DNA of 64,000 bases, from the NCBI GenBank assembly GCA_951406725.2, contig OX597817.1, positions 136,896,001 to 136,960,000 of the forward strand, read 5' to 3'. The stretch is from Octopus vulgaris (Eukaryota). The notes under the pieces were generated by a model that worked only from the letters and a program-made list of their open reading frames with translations, searched no databases and was not told the origin of the DNA. The first letter of the stretch is position 1. Each line of letters opens with the position of its first letter. This document shows positions 7,633 through 57,971 of the stretch, one piece after another. The position numbers and the translations under genes are program-made.

Positions 7633-9225
7633 AGTTAGTTAGTTAGTTAATTTTTTGGCTCAAAAAGCAAAAAGCAAAGCCATGTAGGGGGGACATGGAG
7701 TTATGTACAGGGTGGTGTTCATGTAAAGAGTTCAGGCCACTTGAGGTCAAGGGAGACTTTGAACAAAGCGATCGTCGGCATCTTCACCATCTCGTCTGGC
7801 AGCTTGTTCCACGGATCCACAACCCGGACGGAGAAAGCCCCTTTCCTTCGATTGAGATGAAATCGTCGCAGATAGAGCTTTTCGGAATGACCCCGCAGCC
7901 GACGCTCTGGAGCAGGAGTGAAGAACAGCTCTTTCGAGAGGTTACACTTTCCGCTTATGATGTTGTGAGTGAGAATGAGATCACCACGGCGGTGGCGTTT
8001 TTCTAGAGAATAAAGGTCGAGCGTCTTAAGCCTTTCTTCATAAGACAAATTCTTGAGACCATGAACCATGCGGGTAGCCAGCTTATGGACTCTTTCGAGA
8101 TGCTGTATGTCTTTGAGGAGATAAGGAGAAGAGGCTTGAATCCCATACTCCAATATGGGTCTCACCAGCATGACATAGAGCGGTAGGAATATGGCTGCTG
8201 TGAGCATTCCGAATGACCGTCGAATCAAGGACAGAATTCCGCGTGCTTTGTTGGCAGCATGGACGCACTGGGCCGAAGGCGAAAAGGAGGAATCCACCAA
8301 GATACCCAGGTCCTTTACCTGATCGGTCCTCTCCAGCAGCAGACGACCCGGCTCGAAATCAAGTTGAGTTGCAGGAGGAGAGCCAACAGGCAGATGACAG
8401 CACTTTGACATGTTCAGACACAGGTCCCATTCACTAGACCACCTCCAAATTTGGTGGAGGCATCGATGAAAATCCTCTATATCACTGCGAGGAGCGACCA
8501 GTTTGACATCGTCGGCAAATAGAAGGGTGTGTTGCGTGAGGTCGTCCGGCAAGTCATTTATGAAGACTAAGAACAATAAGGGCCCAAGCACTGAACCATG
8601 AGGCACGCCGCTGCTCACACTGGAGACAAGGATGCGCGTCACCAATTCTTCCATTACCAGTAAGTTGGTCAAGCATGATCTCTTCAGCATGAAGCCGTGT
8701 TGGGAATCAGAGATAGAGGCTGTGTTTTGGAGGTGGAGCATCATACTTTTCTTAAGGATGGTTTCGAACATCTTGCTGATTATTGATGTAAGGGAAACCG
8801 GTCGGTAGTTAAGCGGGTCTTCGCGGCTCCCTTTCTTGAAAATTGGGCAGATTATCGCTGTTCTCCAGTCCGCAGGTATAACACCCGTCGCCAATGACAT
8901 ATTGAATAGACATGTTAAGGGCTCACAGATGACCAGAGCCAACACTTTGATAACCCGTGGGTGTATGCCGTCAGGGCCGTGACCCTTGTTGACATCGAGG
9001 CCTTGAATAACACGTTTGACTTCGTCCCGCGTGATGACCAATCGAAGCATTGGAGGTACCGATCTATCAAATGGAGGGGGTTCACGACCATCATCTTGTT
9101 TGAAAATAGTTGAAAAAGCCTCGGCAAATAATTAACTCTGTTGATAAGGGTCCTCAATTGATACGCCTATTGAGTCTACCAACGTTGCAATTTGGTTGTT
9201 CAAGCGGGAATTCCGTTGGACATGT
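7633..9225 (-). mobile_element. CR1-clade LINE, 5'-truncated ORF2 reverse transcriptase with an internal deletion
   Basis: ORF 7719-9050 has GPDGIHP, PIFKKG, NYRPVSLTS, QHGF, GVPHGSVLGPLLF, FADD and the CR1-type tail LRGHSEKL...FSVRVVDPWNKLP. A (TAAC)n tail lies at ~7633-7650. The segment is GC-rich relative to its flanks. Confidence 0.93.
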
Positions 9226-21811: not shown

Positions 21812-22027
21812 GATCCTTTCTACTATAGGCACAAGGCCTGAAATTTGGGGCAGAATGATAATCAATTACATTAACCCCAGTGGTCAACTGGTATTCATTT
21901 TATCAACCCTGAAAGGATAAAAGGCCAAGTTGACCTTGGCAGAATTTGAACTCACAACATAAAGACAGACGAAATTCTACAAAGTATTTTGTCCTGTATG
22001 CTAACGATTCTGCCAGCTCACTGCCTT
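21812..22027 (-). mobile_element. SINE family A copy
   Basis: Reverse complement of family A, embedded in (TAA)n. Confidence 0.85.
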
Positions 22028-22258
22028 AATAATAATAATAAAAGAAGTTAACTATGACACTTGAGTGCAGTATAGTTTGTTGGAAGAGGGTAAAAAGATG
22101 AGACAGAAATGAGTAAATAAGTAAAGTGAAGAAAGACAGCAAAGATAGCCAAAAATGCCAGCATTGTACGCAGGATGAAGAACACAAGAAGACAAAAGGG
22201 AACCTTAAAAAGGGATGCATAGACACCTTTATTTCTTCATTATATCATTGGTATTCCA

Positions 22259-22880
22259 AGAACTGTTTGTCAGCAGAAAATAAGATATTGCAACAGCATC
22301 AATGCCATCACAACATCTTGATGGAGGTGAAAAATGTTAATGTCCGGTTTTATACCAAAGCAGCCAATCAATGTCAACACATTGTCAGAATTATGTATCA
22401 CAATAAACGTGTTCCAAACAAATAACAGGATTTTTAAATACTGTTGGGGAATTCTTACACAGCATTCTTTCTGAAAATTTCTAGCCTTGTGCCTGTAGCA
22501 GAAAGGATAGCATCATTGTCACGAATAGTAGTTGTAGTAGTAGTAGTAGTAAGCATACATAGGAAACACTCCCAAAAGTTAACCTTTTTTTTAAAAAGTA
22601 TTAATTTTTTTTTTCGGAAACTTTTTTTAAAAAACTGTTCCAAGTTAAAGAATGCTGTGTAAGAAATCCCCAACAGTATTTAAAAATCCTGTTATTTTTT
22701 TGGAATACGTTTATTGTGATACATAATTCTGACAATGTGTTGACACTAATTGGCTGTGTGATGTGGGGGAATTCATTACTGCTTTGGTATATAACATCAG
22801 ACATTTTTTCAACTCCATCAAGATGTCGTGATGTCATTGATGCTGTTGCAATATCTAGTTTTCTGCTGACAAACAGTTCT
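22259..22880. mobile_element. Foldback/MITE-like element with ~210-230-bp inverted arms (22259-22470, 22648-22880)
   Basis: AACTGTTTGTCAGCAGAAAA...CTTACACAGCATTCTT is mirrored by AAGAATGCTGTGTAAG...TTTTCTGCTGACAAACAGTT. Confidence 0.85.
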
Positions 22881-23263
22881 CCTTAACCTCGTTAGAATTG
22901 TGTCCCCCCCAATTAAGCAAATCTATGTACTGCTTGTTAGAATAGTGCCTGTCCTAAGTGCACAACTTATGACTTGTGTTCAATTCCACACCCTGTCAAA
23001 TAAAACGTTTATTTTCTAGAATCTGTGGCAAAAGAATATGAATATTGATAGAATTGTCAGAGCATCAAGCTAAGCTGTGGCATTTAGTTGTGGTACGATC
23101 ATTTCTGAGTTCAATTATCATTGAGGTCAACTCTACTTTTCATTTGTTTCAAGTTGATTAAATAAATAAGTATTGGGGTGGTTTTCTTAATTAATCCACT
23201 TCTCTAAAATCTCATGTCTTAAGCTTATGTTAGGAACAATCATCATCATCTCCATCGTCATCG

Positions 23264-23294
<31 letters not shown>

Positions 23295-23852
23295 GTTATT
23301 TTCTGCTCTTCGTGCCTGTTTGTTCATTGTGTTGAAAACTTTTTGGATAATTCTTGCTAAACCTAGTTAAGTATTTTCTTCACCCTTCTTGCTCCCGGAT
23401 TAAGATCAAGCTTTACCAGGTTTGTCCTCAGATTGTTTCTGTCACTATACTATTTATAATAATTGGTGCTTTAATGATCCCTATTAATTCCTTCATTCTG
23501 GTATTTGAGAATTTCATACTTTCAGCTTTGTAGAATTCTCTCTGCTTTGTCATTTTTTTTTTCCTTTCTTTTCTCTTTGACCCTTTTAATGCCAAATGGC
23601 CAAGTTATGTTGTTTTCTTCATTCAGTTTGTCACACAACAACTCCACTTCATCATTTCTAAGGACTTGCATTTCTATTTCCACAAAATTGCCATAGTTTT
23701 GTGTGTGTGTGTGTGTGTGTGAGAGGTGGGGGGGAGAGAAAGAGAAACTAAATTTCCAGCAAACATTGCAATGTTTTGTTGCAGCAATCTATATGTTGCC
23801 TACAATTTTTACATTCATTATAAAGTAATCATAATAATAATAATAATAATGA

Positions 23853-24343
23853 AATTATTGTGTATAGTGCTCAGGTGCAGTACAACTTGCATGTACAGTA
23901 CATAGAATTATGTGCAAAACTCAGGAAAGTGAACAGTGTATGAGTCATTATGTACATGTGTGCATGCGCATGGCAAACACTCACAAAATTATTAACCATT
24001 GTGCCAACAACTACCTTGAGCACCTTTGTGTCTAAGCTCCATGTGTCTAACACATGTTGACATGCTTACAAAGTCAGAAAGCAGCACAGTTCCCATGACT
24101 TTCGGAAACATTTTTTCATGCTCAGAGTTGCTGAAGCATGGAACAAACTACCTGCATCAGTTGTTAGTTGCCAAGATATTGCATCCTTTAAAACCTCTGT
24201 GCTTCCTGAAATTCGCCAACATGACACCTGGTATCCCCCACTCTCCATACAAATACATACACATGTATATCATGACTCCTACACTGTTTTCTTTCCTGAC
24301 TTTGATGAGTTGTAGTGCACCTGAGCACTGTACACAATAATTT
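23853..24343. mobile_element. Two CR1/L2-type LINE 3' ends in inverted orientation (minus ~23853-23965, plus ~24020-24343)
   Basis: Plus strand translates to YKVRKQHSSHDFRKHFFMLRVAEAWNKLPASVV. Its 3' end GTGCACCTGAGCACTGTACACAATAATTT is mirrored at 23853-23880. Confidence 0.8.
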
Positions 24344-24437
24344 CATTGCAGTTCTATATTTAAGAGATGAGGAATTATTTACATTATTTGTATTATTTAC
24401 ATTTTACGGATATTTGTCCTCATCTTGTTTGTTGTTA

Positions 24438-24481
24438 GCACAACGTTTCAGCTGATATACCCTCCAGCCTTTATCAGGTGT
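24438..24481 (-). ncRNA. Minimal type I hammerhead ribozyme motif, with G8>A in this copy
   Basis: Minus strand reads ACAC CTGATAA A GGCTG-gagggtatat-CAGCT GAAA CG TT GTGC, with palindromic AACGTT at helix III. Confidence 0.65.
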
Positions 24482-24518
24482 TTTGGGAAAATTTTGAACC
24501 TGGGTTCTCATTCCCAAG

Positions 24519-24562
24519 ACACCTGATGAAGGCTGGAGGGTATATCAGCCGAAACGCTGTGT
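24519..24562 (+). ncRNA. Minimal type I hammerhead ribozyme motif, with U16.1>C in this copy
   Basis: ACAC CTGATGA A GGCTG-gagggtatat-CAGCC GAAA CG CT GTGT: stem I ACAC/GTGT, 5-bp stem II and the conserved core. Confidence 0.7.
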
Positions 24563-24609
24563 TAACAACAAACAAGATAAGGACAGATATCCGTCAAATG
24601 TAAATAATT

Positions 24610-24641
<32 letters not shown>

Positions 24642-25059
24642 GTTGTTCTGAGTTGAGTTGTGAATATACCAATATAATCTATGCTGTCATTTCGATCTTT
24701 ACACATTTAACTGGTTGGAGGATCTAAATCTTTTTATTTAGTCCACTGACGTTCAACATTTAAATATTCCTTACATCAACTTTTCTCCTTCATCATTTTA
24801 ACATTCATAAATTATGTCAGCCCATATAAATTAATGTTGTGCCATTCCAAAGAGAAAGGAAAGTAATTATTTTTTTATGTTAATTACATTTTTATTTCTT
24901 TTATTTATTTCTTTCATTTCTTTTAATTTTTTTTAGCTTTTTATATTTTTGTTTTTGATTTCTTTTTTTTTTAATCTATTATTTCCAAGGTCGTTTTATT
25001 TTTTGTTTTTGTTGTAGGAATGCAGAGAGACATGGAGAACGCATTTCTTTCTTTTGTAG

Positions 25060-25136
25060 AAATCCAGAGAAATCGCGAATTTTACCGAACAACAGACGTC
25101 CGACCACCATTCACATATGCCTCTCTCATTCGTCAG
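25060..25136 (+). CDS. FoxP: FoxP forkhead exon 1 ((E)[25 protein letters not shown]); a possible longer form starts at 25018
   Basis: Acceptor tttcttttgtag| at 25059 and donor CAG|gtaggt at 25137. Manual translation gives the FoxP signature [14 protein letters not shown]. Too short for the ORF track. Confidence 0.96.
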
Positions 25137-25389
25137 GTAGGTGCATCGTTTAGAAAGAGCTGCTCCACATAACATGACTGCTAAGTCAGTATGTGTAGAC
25201 TCTTTTATTCTCTGTTATACAATCTGTTTTGCCAGCCAATGCTTTCCAACCATTTGCAGTCTAGCTATGCCAAGGTGAATGCAATAAAATATCCACTTAA
25301 ATGGTAAAATAATACTCAACATTAAACTGAAACAAGTTCTGCTTGATTAAAAAAATGTTTCCAACACCACAATAACTTTACTAAAGTTT

Positions 25390-26340
25390 TTTTGCCGACA
25401 TAACATGGCAGTCCTGGTTTAGGATGAATGTTGCTGTAATTTAGCCCCAGGAGATATCATCTCCAGCTGACTATACAACACGATCTGTGTCCTTATATTT
25501 TCAAACAAGGGAATCTAGCACCCTCACCCAGCTCAAAACAATATCTGTGTATCGTGATTCCGGGTTATTTCCCTTCATCAGCACAGAATAATGGTTCAAC
25601 TAGAGGTGTTTACCAACATAACATGGCAGTCCTGGTTTAGGACGAATGTTGCTGTAATTTAGCCCCAGGAGACATCATCTCCAGCTGGCTATATGACATG
25701 ATCTATGTCCTTATGTGATGTGTTGACAAACAATCTTTACTACAAAGTACTGTTGCTGAATATCTCATGTTGTGAGATTTAAAAATAGTAATTATCACAA
25801 TAGTTCTAATCAAACTTGTTTCAAAAATTAACAATTTACTCAATGAGATAAATAAACTTATAAAGATTCATAAAGATAATGAAACTGAATTAAAAACTGA
25901 TTAAATTAATCATAGCAATAAATCTACTGAGTGAAGCCCCTTTTGTCACCGTCTTCAAAGTAGAATTCACTCCCAACACATATCCATGTAACAGTGCTCA
26001 ATATACACCCCCCACCCCATCCTCCCTCAAACTGCATAATATCTCTGATAAATGCCTACAAGAATAGCTAACAATTAGAGATTATCATCATCACACAAGA
26101 CACAGCAGAGAGAAATGGTTCACTGTCAGCTGAAGAGGTGAAAGGACCCTGAGAGCTTAAAAAAGAGATGATGTTTTCACTTTTGATGTAGGAAGTCTGT
26201 TTACTAATATTCGAATGGCAGAAATAATACAAGCCATATTAAACAACAGACTATAACTAATTTTGATATCAGTTGATGTTCTGAAGAAAAGATTGTGTAA
26301 TGTACAACAGAATTATCTTTTGCTGTCCCTAAGGTAAATG
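25390..26340. mobile_element. Penelope-like element relic: tandem partial terminal repeats (25393-25590, 25609-25715) plus a decayed RT fragment
   Basis: Direct repeat ACATAACATGGCAGTCCTGGTTTAGG occurs twice and is the same family as 57577-57971. The + frame from 26182 reads FDVGSLFTNI, resembling the Penelope-type RT motif SFDVxSLFTNIP. Confidence 0.7.
25544..25587 (-). ncRNA. Hammerhead-like motif with GGAA in place of GAAA
   Basis: Minus strand reads TCTGTG CTGATGA A GGG-aaataa-CCC GGAA TCACGA T A CACAGA: 6-bp stem I, 3-bp stem II, helix III ATC/GAT and a UH triplet. Confidence 0.6.
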
Positions 26341-27466
26341 GTTCACTTCACATCACAGTATTCTTTGAGACTACAACAAAATTGTGGTGACAAGACAAAA
26401 GTACAAAATATACACCAGATCAATCTATTCTTGTATTGATATACCCCAAAGATATCTATTCTAAGCCTCTTATTTCCCCATCATTTCTTTTATTCATCAT
26501 ACCCTCCATAACTAAGAGGACAGTACTTGATTTGTACACATTGAATATCTCCTGCTCCCAAACTCTCTCACTCTCTTTTCTCTTTCCTCCTAAATTTTGC
26601 TGCTTCACTGGGATGGGATGATGGCTTCTGGCAACTTTTACACACCCTCCAAGGTTCTCTTGGATATGCTGCCTTAGCCCCACTCTGCCCACCCATATAT
26701 AACACGGGGCACTACTGAATCTTCTCCAACTTCACCCCATCTCCCTCACCATCCTATAAACCCTCCCCACCTCCCATGCTATCCATGAGAGATTGGAGCC
26801 AGAAGTGCTCCTCCAACTTCTCAAATCCCATTAACTCATCCTACAAATGTCAGCATAGAAAACAGATGTAAAATGATGACGATAATGGTGATGATGTTGT
26901 ATGCACACTCTATACATGTCTGAGTATATGTACACACTGTTATCCTCCTCCTACTCATCCTCATCATCACTTAACATTGGTCCTCCATCCTGCCATGGGT
27001 TCGATGGTTTGATGGCATCCAACAAGCTGCAGGGCGTGTCATGCTTCAGTGTGTGCTTCAGCACAGTCTCTACTTCTGGATGCCCTTCTGAATACCAACC
27101 CCTACTTTTTTCTTCTTTCATGGTATAAGCCCTAGTGAGGTAACCAAGTAACTTCCAAGACAAGGCCCCCCCCCCCCCATCAACTGAGTTAAGGTACAGT
27201 AGAGAGGAAGGTTGCTTTATGCCTGGTGTTGAGAGACTAAAGTATGAAGGAGGGACAGGAAGAGGTTACTTTTCATTGTATATGGGGGTAGGAGTAGCTA
27301 GGTTGGAGCTGGAAAGAAATAAAGAGGATATTGCTACACTACATTCTCCGTTGTACAACTGTTTCTCATCCTGTTGTATTGCTTCCATTGCCTCACTGCA
27401 ACACCCTGTCTGACTCCTTCCATCACACCTTCTATGATGAGTTTCTGTCTTTTCTCACACTTTCAG

Positions 27467-32500: not shown

Positions 32501-33329
32501 TGTAGGTACATTTGAATTTAATGCAGGGTTTAATATATAGTAATTAGCAATGTAAATTTATTTGCTGTCATTTTAGGGTGGTTGTGTGGGAGAGAGAAAT
32601 GACTAACTGATAGAGAGTGAATGACAAATGAAGTAAAATGAAAGTGAATGGAAGGATGAGGTGTTTTGTCATATTGCTCTGATGGCAAACTGTGAAAGAG
32701 AAAATTAAAATAGTGTTTAAAGCAGGACACAATCTTTATATAGTGATGAATAATGATAGAAAATATTAAAAAACTTTTTATGGAATTTACAATTTTTCTG
32801 TGAATATTGGGATAAAAGAATTACTGAAATAATAATAATTAGGTGTAAATCTTTCAATGTTAAGTTGTATTGTAATATTTTTATAGATTATAATATCATG
32901 ATGGTTAATTAAATTTTCATAACTAACATTAAACCAGTAAAAATATTTCAATTTTTGTAGCCCAAGTGTTTATGTGTTGTATACCTTTGCTATTAACTGT
33001 TTGCACACATGCATGCACATTTACAAATTATTGGTCTCAGACTTTCACCTAAGTTCTAAGTAATACTTTAGTAATAAAGTACAAAGTCTTTAGGGAAAAA
33101 ATTAATGGTTTCATCTGTCATTCTCTACAGTTAATAAAACTGCTGTCATTGTTTATGACGTGGATATACTAGGATTTATCACATATGTTGTTTTGTGTTT
33201 GGAATTGTGGTTAAAGAGACTCGGATTTGTGTGAATGTTAAATATCAGTCTATGATGTTCATCTCTTTACCAAAGTCATTTGTTGTCTAAAGAAAAATGG
33301 GTGAATCAGTTAACTATTGGGTTAACTAT

Positions 33330-34132
33330 TTTAATGTTGGATTTGTAGATTAAATATTGGATTAACCAGTTGAAGTTTGGATTTGTAGATTAAATATTGG
33401 ATTAACCAGTTTAATGTTGGATTTGTAGATTAAATATTGGATTAACCAGTTGAAGTTTGGATTTGTAGATTAAATATTGGATTAACCAGTTGAAGTTTGG
33501 ATTTGTAGATTAAATATTGGATTAACCAGTTTAATGTTGGATTTGTAGATTAAATATTGGATTAACCAGTTTAATGTTGGATTTGTAGATTAAATATTGG
33601 ATTAACCAGTTTAATGTTGGATTTGTAACCATTATTAAATATTGGATTAACCATTTAAGTTGGTGGATTAATATTGGATTAACCAGTTTAATGTTGGATT
33701 TATAGATTAAATATTGGATTAACCAGTTTAATGTTGAATTTGTAGATTAAATATTGGATTAACCAGTTTAATGTTGGATTTGTAGATTAAATATTGGATT
33801 AACCAGTTTAATGTTGGTTTGGATTAATTAACAGTTTAATGTTGGATTTGTGATTAAATATTGGATTAACCAATTTAAGTTTGGATTTGTAGATTAAATA
33901 TTGGATTAACCAATTTAATGTTGGATTTGTGGATTAGATTTGGATTAACCAGTTTAATGTTGGATTTATAGATTAAATATTGGATTAACCAGTTTAATGT
34001 TGAATTTGTAGATTAAATATTGGATTAACTAGTTTAATGTTGGATTTATAGATTAAATATTGGATTAACCAATTTAAGTTTGGATTTGTAGATTAAATAT
34101 TGGATTAACCAGTTTAATGTTGGATTTGTAGA
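33330..34132. repeat. Minisatellite, ~20 copies of the 40-bp unit TTGGATTTGTAGATTAAATATTGGATTAACCAGTTTAATG
   Basis: Directly visible tandem array. Each unit is two related 20-bp halves starting TTGGATT. Confidence 0.97.
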
Positions 34133-34472
34133 TAGAATATCCCAGTTTATGGTCATGAAGTGTTCTGCTGGAGTTTTCATAAGTCTTTGGATATAAAACA
34201 TATTTTCTCATTGCTCGCTTACCTCAGTCACCCATCTGTTAGAAATTAGTAATAGAACTAAAGTAGTTGTGGATTAATCTATAATCTGATTAAAGTAAGT
34301 GAAATTGGGATTCCAGTGATCCACAGGATCAGTGGATATTCTATGTCTAATAGATCTTATTTCTATTTTAATGCATAAATTTATATTTTTAATCAATGTT
34401 TGACTCTGTCCAACATTTTTATTTTGTCTTCACTTGTGTCCCATAGTTAAAGTTATTAAAGTGACATACAAC

Positions 34473-42000: not shown

Positions 42001-42441
<441 letters not shown>

Positions 42442-51640: not shown

Positions 51641-52843
51641 ATGTTTAGTAATAACTTGTAGGCTGGATATTGACAAATAATTTTTGTGAACTCAGTCTTT
51701 TTACTATTGTCTCACCTTTTCATTAACCTGTAACAGTTAAGTACAAGATCTAATTTTAACAGCTTAAACATTGGAGGAGGTCACCAATTATAATGATTTG
51801 CACCAAATAAATGAGAGTAGAAGATATTAATTGTTAGTTGAAAAGGTTTTTTTTTTTTTATATCGTTATTGTTACAAAGTTACAACTACTCTGAGTTGTA
51901 TCTTCAGTTTTCTGTAGGTAGTTAGCTTCATCTGTGAGTAATTAGTAAAGAAAGAAAGAGTAAGAGAGTTGTACATTGACAATCCCTAAATGAAAGGAGC
52001 AAATGAGCTGTGTTCTTTGGGTAGGTGTCAAGTAACCAAAGAGGAGGAACTGATTTCAGGTTGCTTATCTATATTCTTCCTAACCAGATTACATCAGGTT
52101 AATCAAAGAATATTTTCCTCTGTATCAGCTTTGACCCATGTATGTCTCAAAAAGATTAGAGATTTCAGTTAACTCTCATAAATATTTTAGTGCAACAGGC
52201 AAGAACAATAGGCAGAGAACTTGTAGAAAAATGTAGATTTAATTTGAAATCCTGGTTCAGAAATTGGAAGCTATAATCAACTGACTATAAATTTACCTTT
52301 TTTAGGCAGTTGAAATTATTTAACTCCCCCATTTCACTTCATCAGTGTATTTCTGCATTAATTTTCCATATAAAGGGTGGAGGTGGGGAGGTCTTTTTCA
52401 TTAACATCAGACTGATTAGTAAGATTTATATGTAAGAAGAAAACCTTTGCAAAATTTTTCAGTTAATTTTCATTTTAATTGTTTTAGAAATTGGAAAATA
52501 TTTCCTAATGGCATCAGGATTTATGTCTGCAAGTGGATCTGTGTATGTGTTCATGTAAACTTCCCAGTATTTTTACTCTCAGTCAGTGGATGATATTATT
52601 CTTTGTTTTTTATTTGTTTTTCTTTTATTTTTTTCATTCCATATTAACAAAATACAACATGATAAAGCATTAAACCAATTGGTTTGAGTATCTTATATGC
52701 ATGACCAACGAAAATTTCTCTACAAACTGAAGACTTTTTCATGGGCTTGGCTACTGTATATTCCCCTCTCTATATACATTTTCTGCCCTGCTGCTAACGC
52801 CATCTGCTGTCTTCTTTCCCATTTTTCTTCTCTTGCTGCACAG

Positions 52844-53001
52844 AATGCTATTCGCACCAATTTGTCCCTGCATAAATGTTTTGTAAGATATGAGGATGAT
52901 TTTGGATCGTTTTGGATGGTGGATGACTTTGAGTTCGTTAGGCGCCGCCATCTGACTCGTGGACGACCCCGAAAATATCACGAAAGTGACACTGCTGCAC
53001 A
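52844..53001 (+). CDS. FoxP: FoxP forkhead exon 3B, alternative paralogous exon ([53 protein letters not shown])
   Basis: Branch-like GCTAAC at 52793-52798, a long pyrimidine tract and cag| at 52843. Donor CA|gtaagc at 53002. 158 nt with the same 0-2 phase as exon 3A, aligning to it residue by residue. Confidence 0.95.
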
Positions 53002-56000: not shown

Positions 56001-57576
56001 TCACAAAGAAAATATCATTTTTATTTATTTATTTACTTCTTGCTTTACATTAATCTTTCTATCGAGCCTAATATCACTCCAGCTTCACATATTGGTAAAT
56101 TGAATTGTCAAAGAATCCACCAGAAGAAATCTATTAAAGCACTAACATTTTAATTAAATCTTTTTCCTCCCATTATTTTCCTTCTTTTCATCCTCCTTTA
56201 CTCATACAGCTTATACATATAAGCACATATATACATATGTCTTTTTACGTATGTGTTTATGTGTGGATAATCATTAGAATATTTCTGTATATACTATCGA
56301 TATTCATGTCTACATTCCTGTTCTCAAAGTAAAGAGCCCAGCTTGGAGATTGGTAGCATTATTATCCACAAAAGTGACAGACTTATAAAGCCCCCATTAT
56401 ACAAAAAGTTACAAACTCCTGTTATACAAAGTGATAGAATTTCAAGGCCCTGTTATACAAAGAGTTACAAATCCCTTTTAAATGTTAGACATTCTTCCAC
56501 CTTTCTGCAGGATTCTTGTTTTAAAGATCAATGACTTTTGCAAGGTTCGTTTGAGTACATCGTGAACCAGGAATTGAAAATATGCCATCTTTTAAATGAA
56601 TTTTTATCATCTTCCTCTTTAACTTTTCGCACAAAAGAATCCCTTCCTCAATGTCTTTCTCATCCTTAAATATTCTCCACTGAATCAACATTTCATCCCT
56701 TCTAAACCATTCTCTGATGGTTATTGTTTTGTTTTTTTTTATTATTTTGGGTAGTTTTCATCCACTGTCCCAAATTCTTTAATCTTCTTAGCTTACAAAA
56801 CCAACATCATCATTTTATTATTGGATACGACATTGAATTCCTCTCCAGAATTCAATGTCTGCCAACAGTTTTACCAGTTGTGGTCTGAGTGACATGCTTT
56901 CAATTAATTTTCTTCACCTCTGCATTACTTGTGATGCTTGTCTTTCTAACTCCCTCTTTTTCATCTTTCTATTTCTCTTTAAATTCCTTTCCTGTTTCTT
57001 AATAATTATAAGTATGGTTATATTGTCTAATTATGAAACACACTCACATCTTGATCCCACAATTAATCTTGTCAATATGTTGTGCTTTAGAATATTTTGA
57101 GAGTGGAAAATGACGTTATTTCAGTAAATCACATTAAATTTATATTGTTGCATTTGTTGGATGCCTTTTTTTTTTTATCTAAATTGATTTAAAATAATTC
57201 AATAAACCAACATTTAAAAGGAATTCAGAAGGGTGGGAAAAAACAAAAAAATGACCCCACCTTTTTTGTTTTTTTTCAACTTTTATAACATAATTCAACA
57301 TGCCTATTTTCTAAACTTATTTCTGCCATGGAATTTGTGTGTGTGTGTGTGTGTGTATTAGTAACTGAATAAGTTAAGGGTTTTGCATATTAAATGATTA
57401 ATATGCAAAAAGTTAAACTTTCTTAAAATCTTCATTTCTTCCATTGAGAATCTGTTTCACAATTCTCCTTGAAAATATTTTCATTTTCTGTCGATATTAA
57501 TGATTATCTCAAGTTACTTTCAAAATGAGAGTTACTATTTTCAAATCTCACAATGAGAGATATTCAGCAACAGTAC

Positions 57577-57971
57577 TTTGGAGTAAAGATTATTTGCCAA
57601 CATAACATGGCAGTCCTGGTTTAGGACGAATGTTGCTGTGATTTAACCCCAGGAAACATCGTCTCCAGCTGGCTATACGACACGATCTGTGTCCTTATAT
57701 TTTCGAACAAGGGAATCTAGCACCCCACTCAGTCTACCATCCCAGCTCAAAACAATATCTGTGTGCTGATGAAGGGAAATAACTTGGAAGTCATGACACA
57801 GATAATATTCTGAGCTGAGTGGGGGTGCTAGATTCCCTTGTTCGAAAATATAAGGACACAGATCGTGTCATATTGCCAGCTGGAGATGATGTCTCCTGAG
57901 GCTAAATTAAAGCAACATTCGTCCTAAACCGGGACTGCCATGTTATGTTGGCAAACAATTTTTACTCCAAA
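57577..57971. mobile_element. Inverted pair of Penelope-like terminal repeats (~395-nt hairpin) with a central hammerhead-like motif at 57762-57800
   Basis: TTTGGAGTAAA...GGAATCTAGCACCCC is mirrored by GGGGTGCTAGATTCC...TTTACTCCAAA. The centre reads TGTG CTGATGA A GGG-aaataa-CTT GGAA GTCATGA CACA. Confidence 0.8.

Follow-up and report, generated by a model that had tools for sequence, protein, structure and literature searches.

The FoxP Locus and Its Repeats

The window, by which we mean the whole 64-kb stretch of DNA that was analyzed, is the Octopus FoxP locus, because an upstream coding exon has 100% identity to Octopus vulgaris FoxP over 109 aa (90% to O. bimaculoides). The FoxP exon that opens the forkhead region is found at 25018..25137 (+). 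It has two acceptors, at 25018 and 25060, which are 42 nt apart and are both in use by the named O. vulgaris isoforms P0002 and P0001. The second half of the forkhead is encoded by two alternative exons (42001-42123 and 52841-52948), and named Octopus isoforms carry one or the other. Similar mutually exclusive exons are present in insect FoxP and in vertebrate FOXP1. A search of the FoxP/octopus literature gave nothing relevant among the matches listed.

The intron contains a long hairpin that lies upstream of both acceptors, by 452 nt for 25060 and by ~410 nt for the alternative one at 25018. A preliminary description of this DNA had placed it about 450 nt upstream of the first forkhead exon, in agreement with the distance to 25060. 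The window contains other repeats. A second palindromic family, MITE-like and with arms of ~190 nt, is found at 57577-57971 and at 25382-25797 together with 57526-57602. Its centre reads CUGAUGA-A-GGG..CCC followed by GGAA, not GAAA, and is therefore similar to a hammerhead core without passing the hammerhead descriptor discussed below. There is a further long inverted repeat at 22259-22880 and a tandem array of ~160-190 nt units at 33310-34140. A 470-aa frame on the minus strand (7719-9131) resembles a LINE reverse transcriptase fragment.

Two Opposed Hammerhead Motifs

An inverted-repeat search resolved the hairpin into two arms of 98 nt each (24392-24489 and 24511-24608), which are 92% complementary and separated by a 21-nt gap. 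Compared with each other, the arms differ at 8/98 positions. The palindrome folds at -156.3 kcal/mol and none of 200 shuffles was equally stable. Outward from the centre, both arms show the same order of parts: stem I of 4 bp, the CUGAUGA box, one A left unpaired, stem II of 5 bp with a closing G-C pair, GAAA, CG, and an NUH triplet. The right arm carries a minimal type I hammerhead motif at 24519..24562 (+). It consists of stem I (24519-22/24559-62), the CUGAUGA box (24523-29), the unpaired A (24530), stem II (24531-35/24546-50, with a sixth pair, G-U, possible), and GAAA (24551-54), then CG. Position 17 is U (24558), after which the cut is predicted. The left arm carries the mirror image of this motif at 24438..24481 (-).

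Cleavage requires G8 and U16.1 (hammerhead numbering). Each arm has lost one of the two. In the right arm U16.1 is changed to C at 24557, while in the left arm U16.1 is intact and G8 is changed to A at 24472. The preliminary description had reported a pair of opposed hammerhead-like arms here with exactly these lesions, U16.1C in sense and G8A in antisense, and both the arms and the lesions are present. Its list of lesions was incomplete, since the left arm has also changed C11.1 to U (24450, giving a G-U pair) and has a mismatched outer stem I pair (24438). The 15.2/16.2 palindrome, through which an intermolecular helix III could form, is A-C-G-U in the left arm and is broken in the right arm by the U16.1 to C change.

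When one core mismatch was permitted, a descriptor built after the published consensus found these two sites alone on both strands of the 64-kb window and no site in 60 shuffled windows. With zero mismatches the descriptor found no site on either strand of the window. An 18-nt pattern returned the same two sites, with 0.01 expected. An Rfam scan of 22000-27000 had no hammerhead in its 10 matches (E up to 5). We also considered a microRNA and rejected it, as Rfam gave generic hairpin matches alone (MIR9486, 63 bits vs. a cut-off of 100; mir-875).

Insertion Boundaries and Target Site

The whole insertion is 255 bp in length (24348-24602) and lies between 12-bp target-site duplications. The left duplication (24336..24347) is an exact match to the right one (24603..24614), and these are the only two plus-strand occurrences of the 12-bp repeat in the window. 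The right duplication borders an (ATT)10 run, placing the insertion in AT-rich/microsatellite DNA. The insertion is at the end of an older repeat (24259..24347, +), which picks up again at 24615-24636. After scripted removal of 24348-24614, the flanks align without gaps to the older repeat's inverted partner at ~23826-23961. Thus, an empty site is preserved 500 nt away. The older inverted pair (23826-23961 and 24259-24347+24615-24636) ends in (TAA)n/(ATT)n and is an abundant repeat as well. Reads leave the older repeat at 24347 into an ATT run.

Two copies make up the insertion. The left copy (24392..24518, -), as judged from family reads, includes the 21-nt "spacer" and is 5′-truncated near 24511-24518. 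The right copy (24511..24608, +) is 5′-truncated ~10 nt ahead of its motif, and the 6 nt at its far end are shared with the target duplication. The left copy alone continues into a 43-nt 3′ extension, or tail (24349..24391, -), which has no counterpart on the right copy and has a 9-nt tandem duplication inside it (tandem 24374-24403). The hairpin described previously is therefore correct as to the position of its arms, but the insertion is larger, its tail is one-sided, and the apparent spacer is left-copy sequence. Both 3′ ends face outward, which is the arrangement of an inverted 5′-truncated copy joined at the 5′ end. This anatomy, an inverted 5′-truncated copy with an optional tail, is the published insertion pattern of Penelope-like elements (PLEs).

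The Repeat Family in Public Reads

Four of the 24 listed runs were mapped on 24150-25200. Three are sets of DNA contigs (X1, X6, and X11, from organisms A, C, and E) and one is a raw RNA run (X23, organism E). The summed contig depth, which is not a copy number, is 1.4-7.1 million on the element vs. 48-60 on the unique flank. Read from depth alone, and again not as a copy number, the abundance of the element is of the order of 10^4 to 10^5. G8 is found in the majority letters with 69, 77, and 77% of the depth in the three DNA runs and in 1855/1956 RNA reads. U16.1 is found likewise with 94, 94, and 93% of the depth and in 840/1256 RNA reads. The family majority keeps G8 and U16.1, both of which are damaged in the FoxP copy. 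The family state at 11.1 is taken from the right arm, because 24450 is absent among the best 40 of 184 difference rows. The family also has copies in O. sinensis and O. bimaculoides, recognized via named proteins. Its copies have also entered Octopus gene models (P0007, P0010, P0018). Isoform X2 of O. sinensis LOC115224785 and dystrobrevin beta X1 of O. bimaculoides owe spurious N-termini to them, and one entry of 51 aa consists of such a copy entirely.

The reads also define the ends of the element. In 4/4 runs, the family has two end points, 24349 and 24392, which are reached by near-equal numbers of reads (loose ends 264/218 in X1, 328/258 in X6, 234/206 in X11, and 1424/1518 in X23), i.e., with and without the tail. 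Where reads enter the right arm at 24513, the sequence ahead of that point resembles the reverse complement of the spacer, and the spacer is thus the extra 5′ part of the left copy. The reads go on past 24518 in shared family sequence, and upstream of the motif this family sequence enters a GTT/ATT microsatellite after ~18 nt. Among the joints listed (15 of 200) are 24436-24516, 24440-24515, and 24449-24513, which point to other head-to-head copies with differing truncation points. "Opposite strands" joints near 24441/24555 were rejected as junctions and are read as a 3-nt deletion variant mapping across the arms.

These observations bear on a very different reading of the palindrome, namely a MITE or fold-back DNA transposon with terminal inverted repeats that are hammerhead-like by chance. 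Such an element would account for a long inverted repeat with a target duplication, and the window does contain further long palindromes (22259-22880 and 57577-57971). However, the two ends are unequal owing to the one-sided tail, the junction varies among copies, the spacer is itself family sequence, and the descriptor had no chance site in the shuffled windows. We regard a MITE as very improbable.

The RNA run informs on the family and not on the FoxP copy. Of its reads on the element, 91% continue into other sequence and the RNA depth on the flanking intron is 0-2, so that the reads come from other loci. There is no pile-up of RNA ends at any position, the predicted cut site included, in this run (X23; a fragmented, unstranded library, 6% of it covered). 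A 3-nt deletion at the cut site (24555-24557) is carried by 294/1340 RNA reads (22%, X23) vs. 0.1-0.4% of the depth in the three DNA runs. This is possibly due to one highly expressed copy. An excess of A>G changes (29 places in RNA run X23 vs. 7 in DNA run X11) was considered as editing and rejected, given that C>T is also raised (37 vs. 23), that the library does not preserve strand, and that different individuals were sequenced.

The frequency of the 3-nt deletion in RNA, set against less than 0.5% of DNA depth, is also the basis of a more far-reaching proposal. Tens of thousands of Octopus copies, mostly with intact cores, would cut host transcripts as trans-dimers, and intact motifs would be depleted from RNA. 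Head-to-head copies, being self-silenced, would be tolerated in introns. We think this quite unlikely. Were copies of the intact majority to cleave host transcripts in vivo, the family would matter more.

Predicted Folding and Activity

Folded alone, the right motif is predicted to form both stems with p 0.93-0.95, and inside the insertion with p 0.0. The left motif alone is predicted to lack the hammerhead fold (stem I p 0.0, stem II p 0.06). In the whole insertion both stems have p 0.0 on either strand, and the same is true of a nascent chain ending at 24565. Forcing the hammerhead stems within the insertion costs ~69 kcal/mol (-160.4 to -91.6). The 98-bp hairpin is thus predicted to abolish the fold of either motif, and no activity is expected from the locus. 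Because the hairpin is predicted to bury both motifs, the copy in the FoxP intron is likely dead whatever its core. The preliminary description had judged the copy probably inactive from one core lesion per arm; predicted burial in the hairpin adds a second ground.

It had also proposed dimeric cleavage. The palindromic 15.2/16.2 on which that idea rested is there, but the opposed arms at this locus are unable to pair in cis. FoxP pre-mRNA has only the right motif in sense. The motifs are on opposite strands, with one sense motif per transcript, so no cis double hammerhead can come from this pair, and a cis-dimer of both arms is excluded by strand. In the nearest-neighbour model, the double-hammerhead form (with U16.1 set) reaches -19.5 kcal/mol vs. 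-31.4 for the dimer optimum, although such models give the hammerhead core no score.

A stable duplex in an intron may also have been put to use by the host. The hairpin could, as dsRNA in FoxP pre-mRNA, be edited by ADAR or affect which of the two acceptors (25018 or 25060) is used. Repeats are heavily edited in coleoids, and a 98-bp duplex of -156 kcal/mol lies 410-452 nt ahead of two alternative acceptors. Such an exapted hairpin is nevertheless highly improbable, as the arms are 8% different with their lesions scattered as under neutral drift, and the RNA depth of the intron adjoining the locus is 0-2. As to an insertion at the same site in other species, a single contig (X6 record 24) extends into the arm, and covers just 24 letters of it.

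Search for a Parent Gene and a Sister Family

No PLE coding remnant was found in the 64-kb window by tblastn of PLE frames from three of the metagenome loci described below (L033, L043, and L048; best E 0.23). An open frame runs through the motif of the left copy, from an ATG at 24511 to a stop at 24405, and was used as the query for a parent protein. The search with the motif translation gave 1 + 51 protein hits, the longest of 413 aa. Of the 52 proteins bearing the motif translation, 23 were scanned and 0/23 had an RT or GIY-YIG domain. The protein hits are read as gene-model artefacts of repeat copies, and a coding role for the motif frame is unsupported.

Most of these hits (P0008-P0058) are a translated sister repeat family with a CUGAAGA-type core. 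The sister family is often arranged head-to-tail with 38-43 codons per unit (~115-130 nt), a layout that would permit a cis double hammerhead. By a strict pattern, head-to-tail units are found in 5/52 proteins. The translations hint at a difference in stem II, with W..Q in the family studied here vs. mostly W..R or R..R in the sister family. The hint would fit a single stem II pair that is U-A in the first family and either U-G or C-G in the sister family.

The missing parent gene raises the question of whether the family should be called a PLE. It could instead be a non-autonomous SINE-like or retrozyme-like hammerhead element, whose PLE parent is lost and which uses the RT of another element, the palindrome being two copies joined at insertion. 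A parent gene was not found in the window or in the 23/52 proteins scanned, and the shared upstream sequence reaches a microsatellite after ~18 nt. The head-to-tail sister units in 5/52 proteins recall those of non-LTR retrozymes (bioRxiv 10.64898/2026.07.22.740005). On the other hand, the literature treats a one-sided tail and an inverted pair that faces outward as signatures of PLEs (PMC8557442, PMC11167929), and we find a SINE-like or retrozyme-like origin unlikely. The retrozyme version differs from a PLE mainly by label, because the preprint derives such elements from PLEs (bioRxiv 10.64898/2026.07.22.740005).

The Same Core in Other Animals

The core was also searched for in metagenome contigs with a pattern derived from the motif in the FoxP intron. 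An exact 28-nt search of metagenome contigs had 0 matches, and the gapped core pattern had 0 matches in viral contigs. The gapped core pattern was found at 122 metagenome loci, of which the 121 analyzed contain 126 motifs. These motifs belong to other families and their flanks are without similarity to the Octopus family. Stem positions left free by the pattern pair in 98/126 cells vs. a shuffle mean of 51.6 and maximum of 68 (5000 shuffles). This count covers 21 families from 123 motifs with full flanks, three motifs having been dropped. Stem covariation is thus a finding on the motif class as it occurs in other animals, and not on the Octopus family itself.

Many of the motifs adjoin PLE genes. 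A PLE protein match ends ≤700 nt upstream on the same strand for 42/126 motifs, starts just downstream for 20 motifs, and is on the opposite strand for 18 motifs. Because the PLE queries came from three of the same loci, these numbers include self-matches and miss distant families. The clearest case is locus L043, where an 823-aa RVT_1 + GIY-YIG frame, both domains above the Pfam cut-offs, ends 67 nt before the motif. Opposed hammerhead pairs were found in three distinct contigs, and 3/3 face outward like the pair in the FoxP intron. These pairs (L026 3200-4400, L048, and L061) have PLE coding fragments between them, i.e., the same layout with longer copies.

Origin of the Insertion

The locus is best explained as a single 255-bp insertion in which two truncated copies of an abundant Octopus repeat, likely a PLE pLTR, stand back to back, with damaged minimal hammerheads that are predicted to be inactive. 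We give this reading a probability of about 0.85. The preliminary description had already recognized an inverted pair of PLE-type minimal hammerheads, and this identification has gained from the read majority, which restores both core positions, and from the target duplication and one-sided tail. Against it, a target duplication of 12 bp does not by itself mark an insertion as a PLE, and an upstream run into a microsatellite is also expected from the 3′ tail of a LINE or SINE on the opposite strand.

The insertion may have arisen as follows. A PLE RT/GIY-YIG protein would have nicked AT-rich DNA at the edge of the (ATT)n run. Element RNA would then have been reverse-transcribed from two start points ~43 nt apart, leaving one tailed and one tailless end. 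Both cDNAs would have come from one event, and near-complementarity of 7-8 nt (24511-24518) would have served to join them where their 5′ ends are truncated. The arms would since have drifted neutrally to their 8% difference. Drift of ~4% per arm would correspond to an age of very roughly 10 million years if scaled as in PMC13282606, in which a distance of 0.065 stands for 18 million years. In an active element the transcript would be cut after GUU, either as a double hammerhead or aided by protein. In FoxP pre-mRNA, the sole sense motif (right) would be trapped in the 98-bp hairpin.

As it stands the locus is of little consequence, being one dead repeat insertion. It is, however, an unusually clean record of PLE-type integration, with a target duplication, a neighbouring empty site, a one-sided tail, and an inverted junction. 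A very abundant Octopus repeat is now labelled as hammerhead-bearing, which is useful to repeat annotation.

Comparison With Known Systems

The family motif resembles the minimal hammerheads in the pLTRs of metazoan PLEs described by Cervera and de la Pena (2014, PMC4209133). Shared features are a CUGANGA core, an unpaired base after A9, G10.1-C11.1, a helix II of 5-6 bp, a helix I of 3-5 bp, a palindromic CG at 15.2/16.2, GUU as the NUH triplet, and dispersal as stubs. Minimal hammerheads in PLE repeats, with thousands of stubs and opposed pairs, have been published there. The opposite-strand pairs of that study are 100-700 bp apart, whereas the opposed motifs here start ~40 nt apart, are both damaged, and have no parent gene in view. 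There are no cephalopods among the species listed in Fig. S3 of PMC4209133. A minimal motif on its own is inactive, and as a dimer it shows weak cutting (PMC4209133). In metazoans, cleavage by minimal hammerheads is weak and takes place only as multimers or with PLE protein (PMC4209133, PMC11167929), which qualifies the prediction of the preliminary description that the family consensus should cleave.

In Octopus, a described element that likewise carries a hammerhead and inserts into microsatellites is Hydra-1_Obim. It was listed for Octopus bimaculoides as a PLE of the Hydra clade (Craig et al., 2021, PMC8557442 File S2). Its sequence differs, having a CUGAAGA core, a 7-bp stem II, and a 4-bp stem III. 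A 14-nt probe of the motif of the FoxP-intron family matched 0 places in the PMC8557442 supplement, in which line breaks could defeat the probe. Elsewhere, the giant squid genome has 235 Rfam hammerheads (PMC6962438) and O. vulgaris has 30 recently active Penelope families (PMC13282606). We did not find a description of the family motif in the octopus and cephalopod literature on hammerheads and Penelope elements; Repbase, Dfam, Lunse et al. (RNA Biol), and the supplements of PMC13282606 and bioRxiv 10.64898/2026.07.22.740005 may hold one.

The mode of insertion has close parallels. PLE insertions often have an inverted 5′-truncated copy at the 5′ end and a tail of 30-40 bp on one side (PMC8557442). 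The protein of the Anolis Poseidon element PAc has ATT as its cutting site, and the tail is set by the two positions from which it begins reverse transcription (PMC11167929). PAc therefore shares with the FoxP-intron insertion an ATT target and an optional tail from two RT start sites. It is also alike in that RNA-seq ends are absent at the hammerhead cut site and a frame opens inside the pLTR (PMC11167929). Unlike this locus, which is known from sequence alone, PAc is autonomous and has been assayed. Its hammerhead cuts only with protein, is dispensable for insertion in vitro, and is abolished in cleavage by G8C (PMC11167929).

Non-LTR retrozymes (PMC7229834; bioRxiv 10.64898/2026.07.22.740005) are similar to the family in being non-coding, in carrying a type I hammerhead, and in their high copy number in animals. 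They are defined by head-to-tail tandem units, whereas the FoxP-intron locus consists of two head-to-head copies only. Thus, while the family motif itself was not met in the literature, the hammerhead pair is an ordinary case of a known kind.
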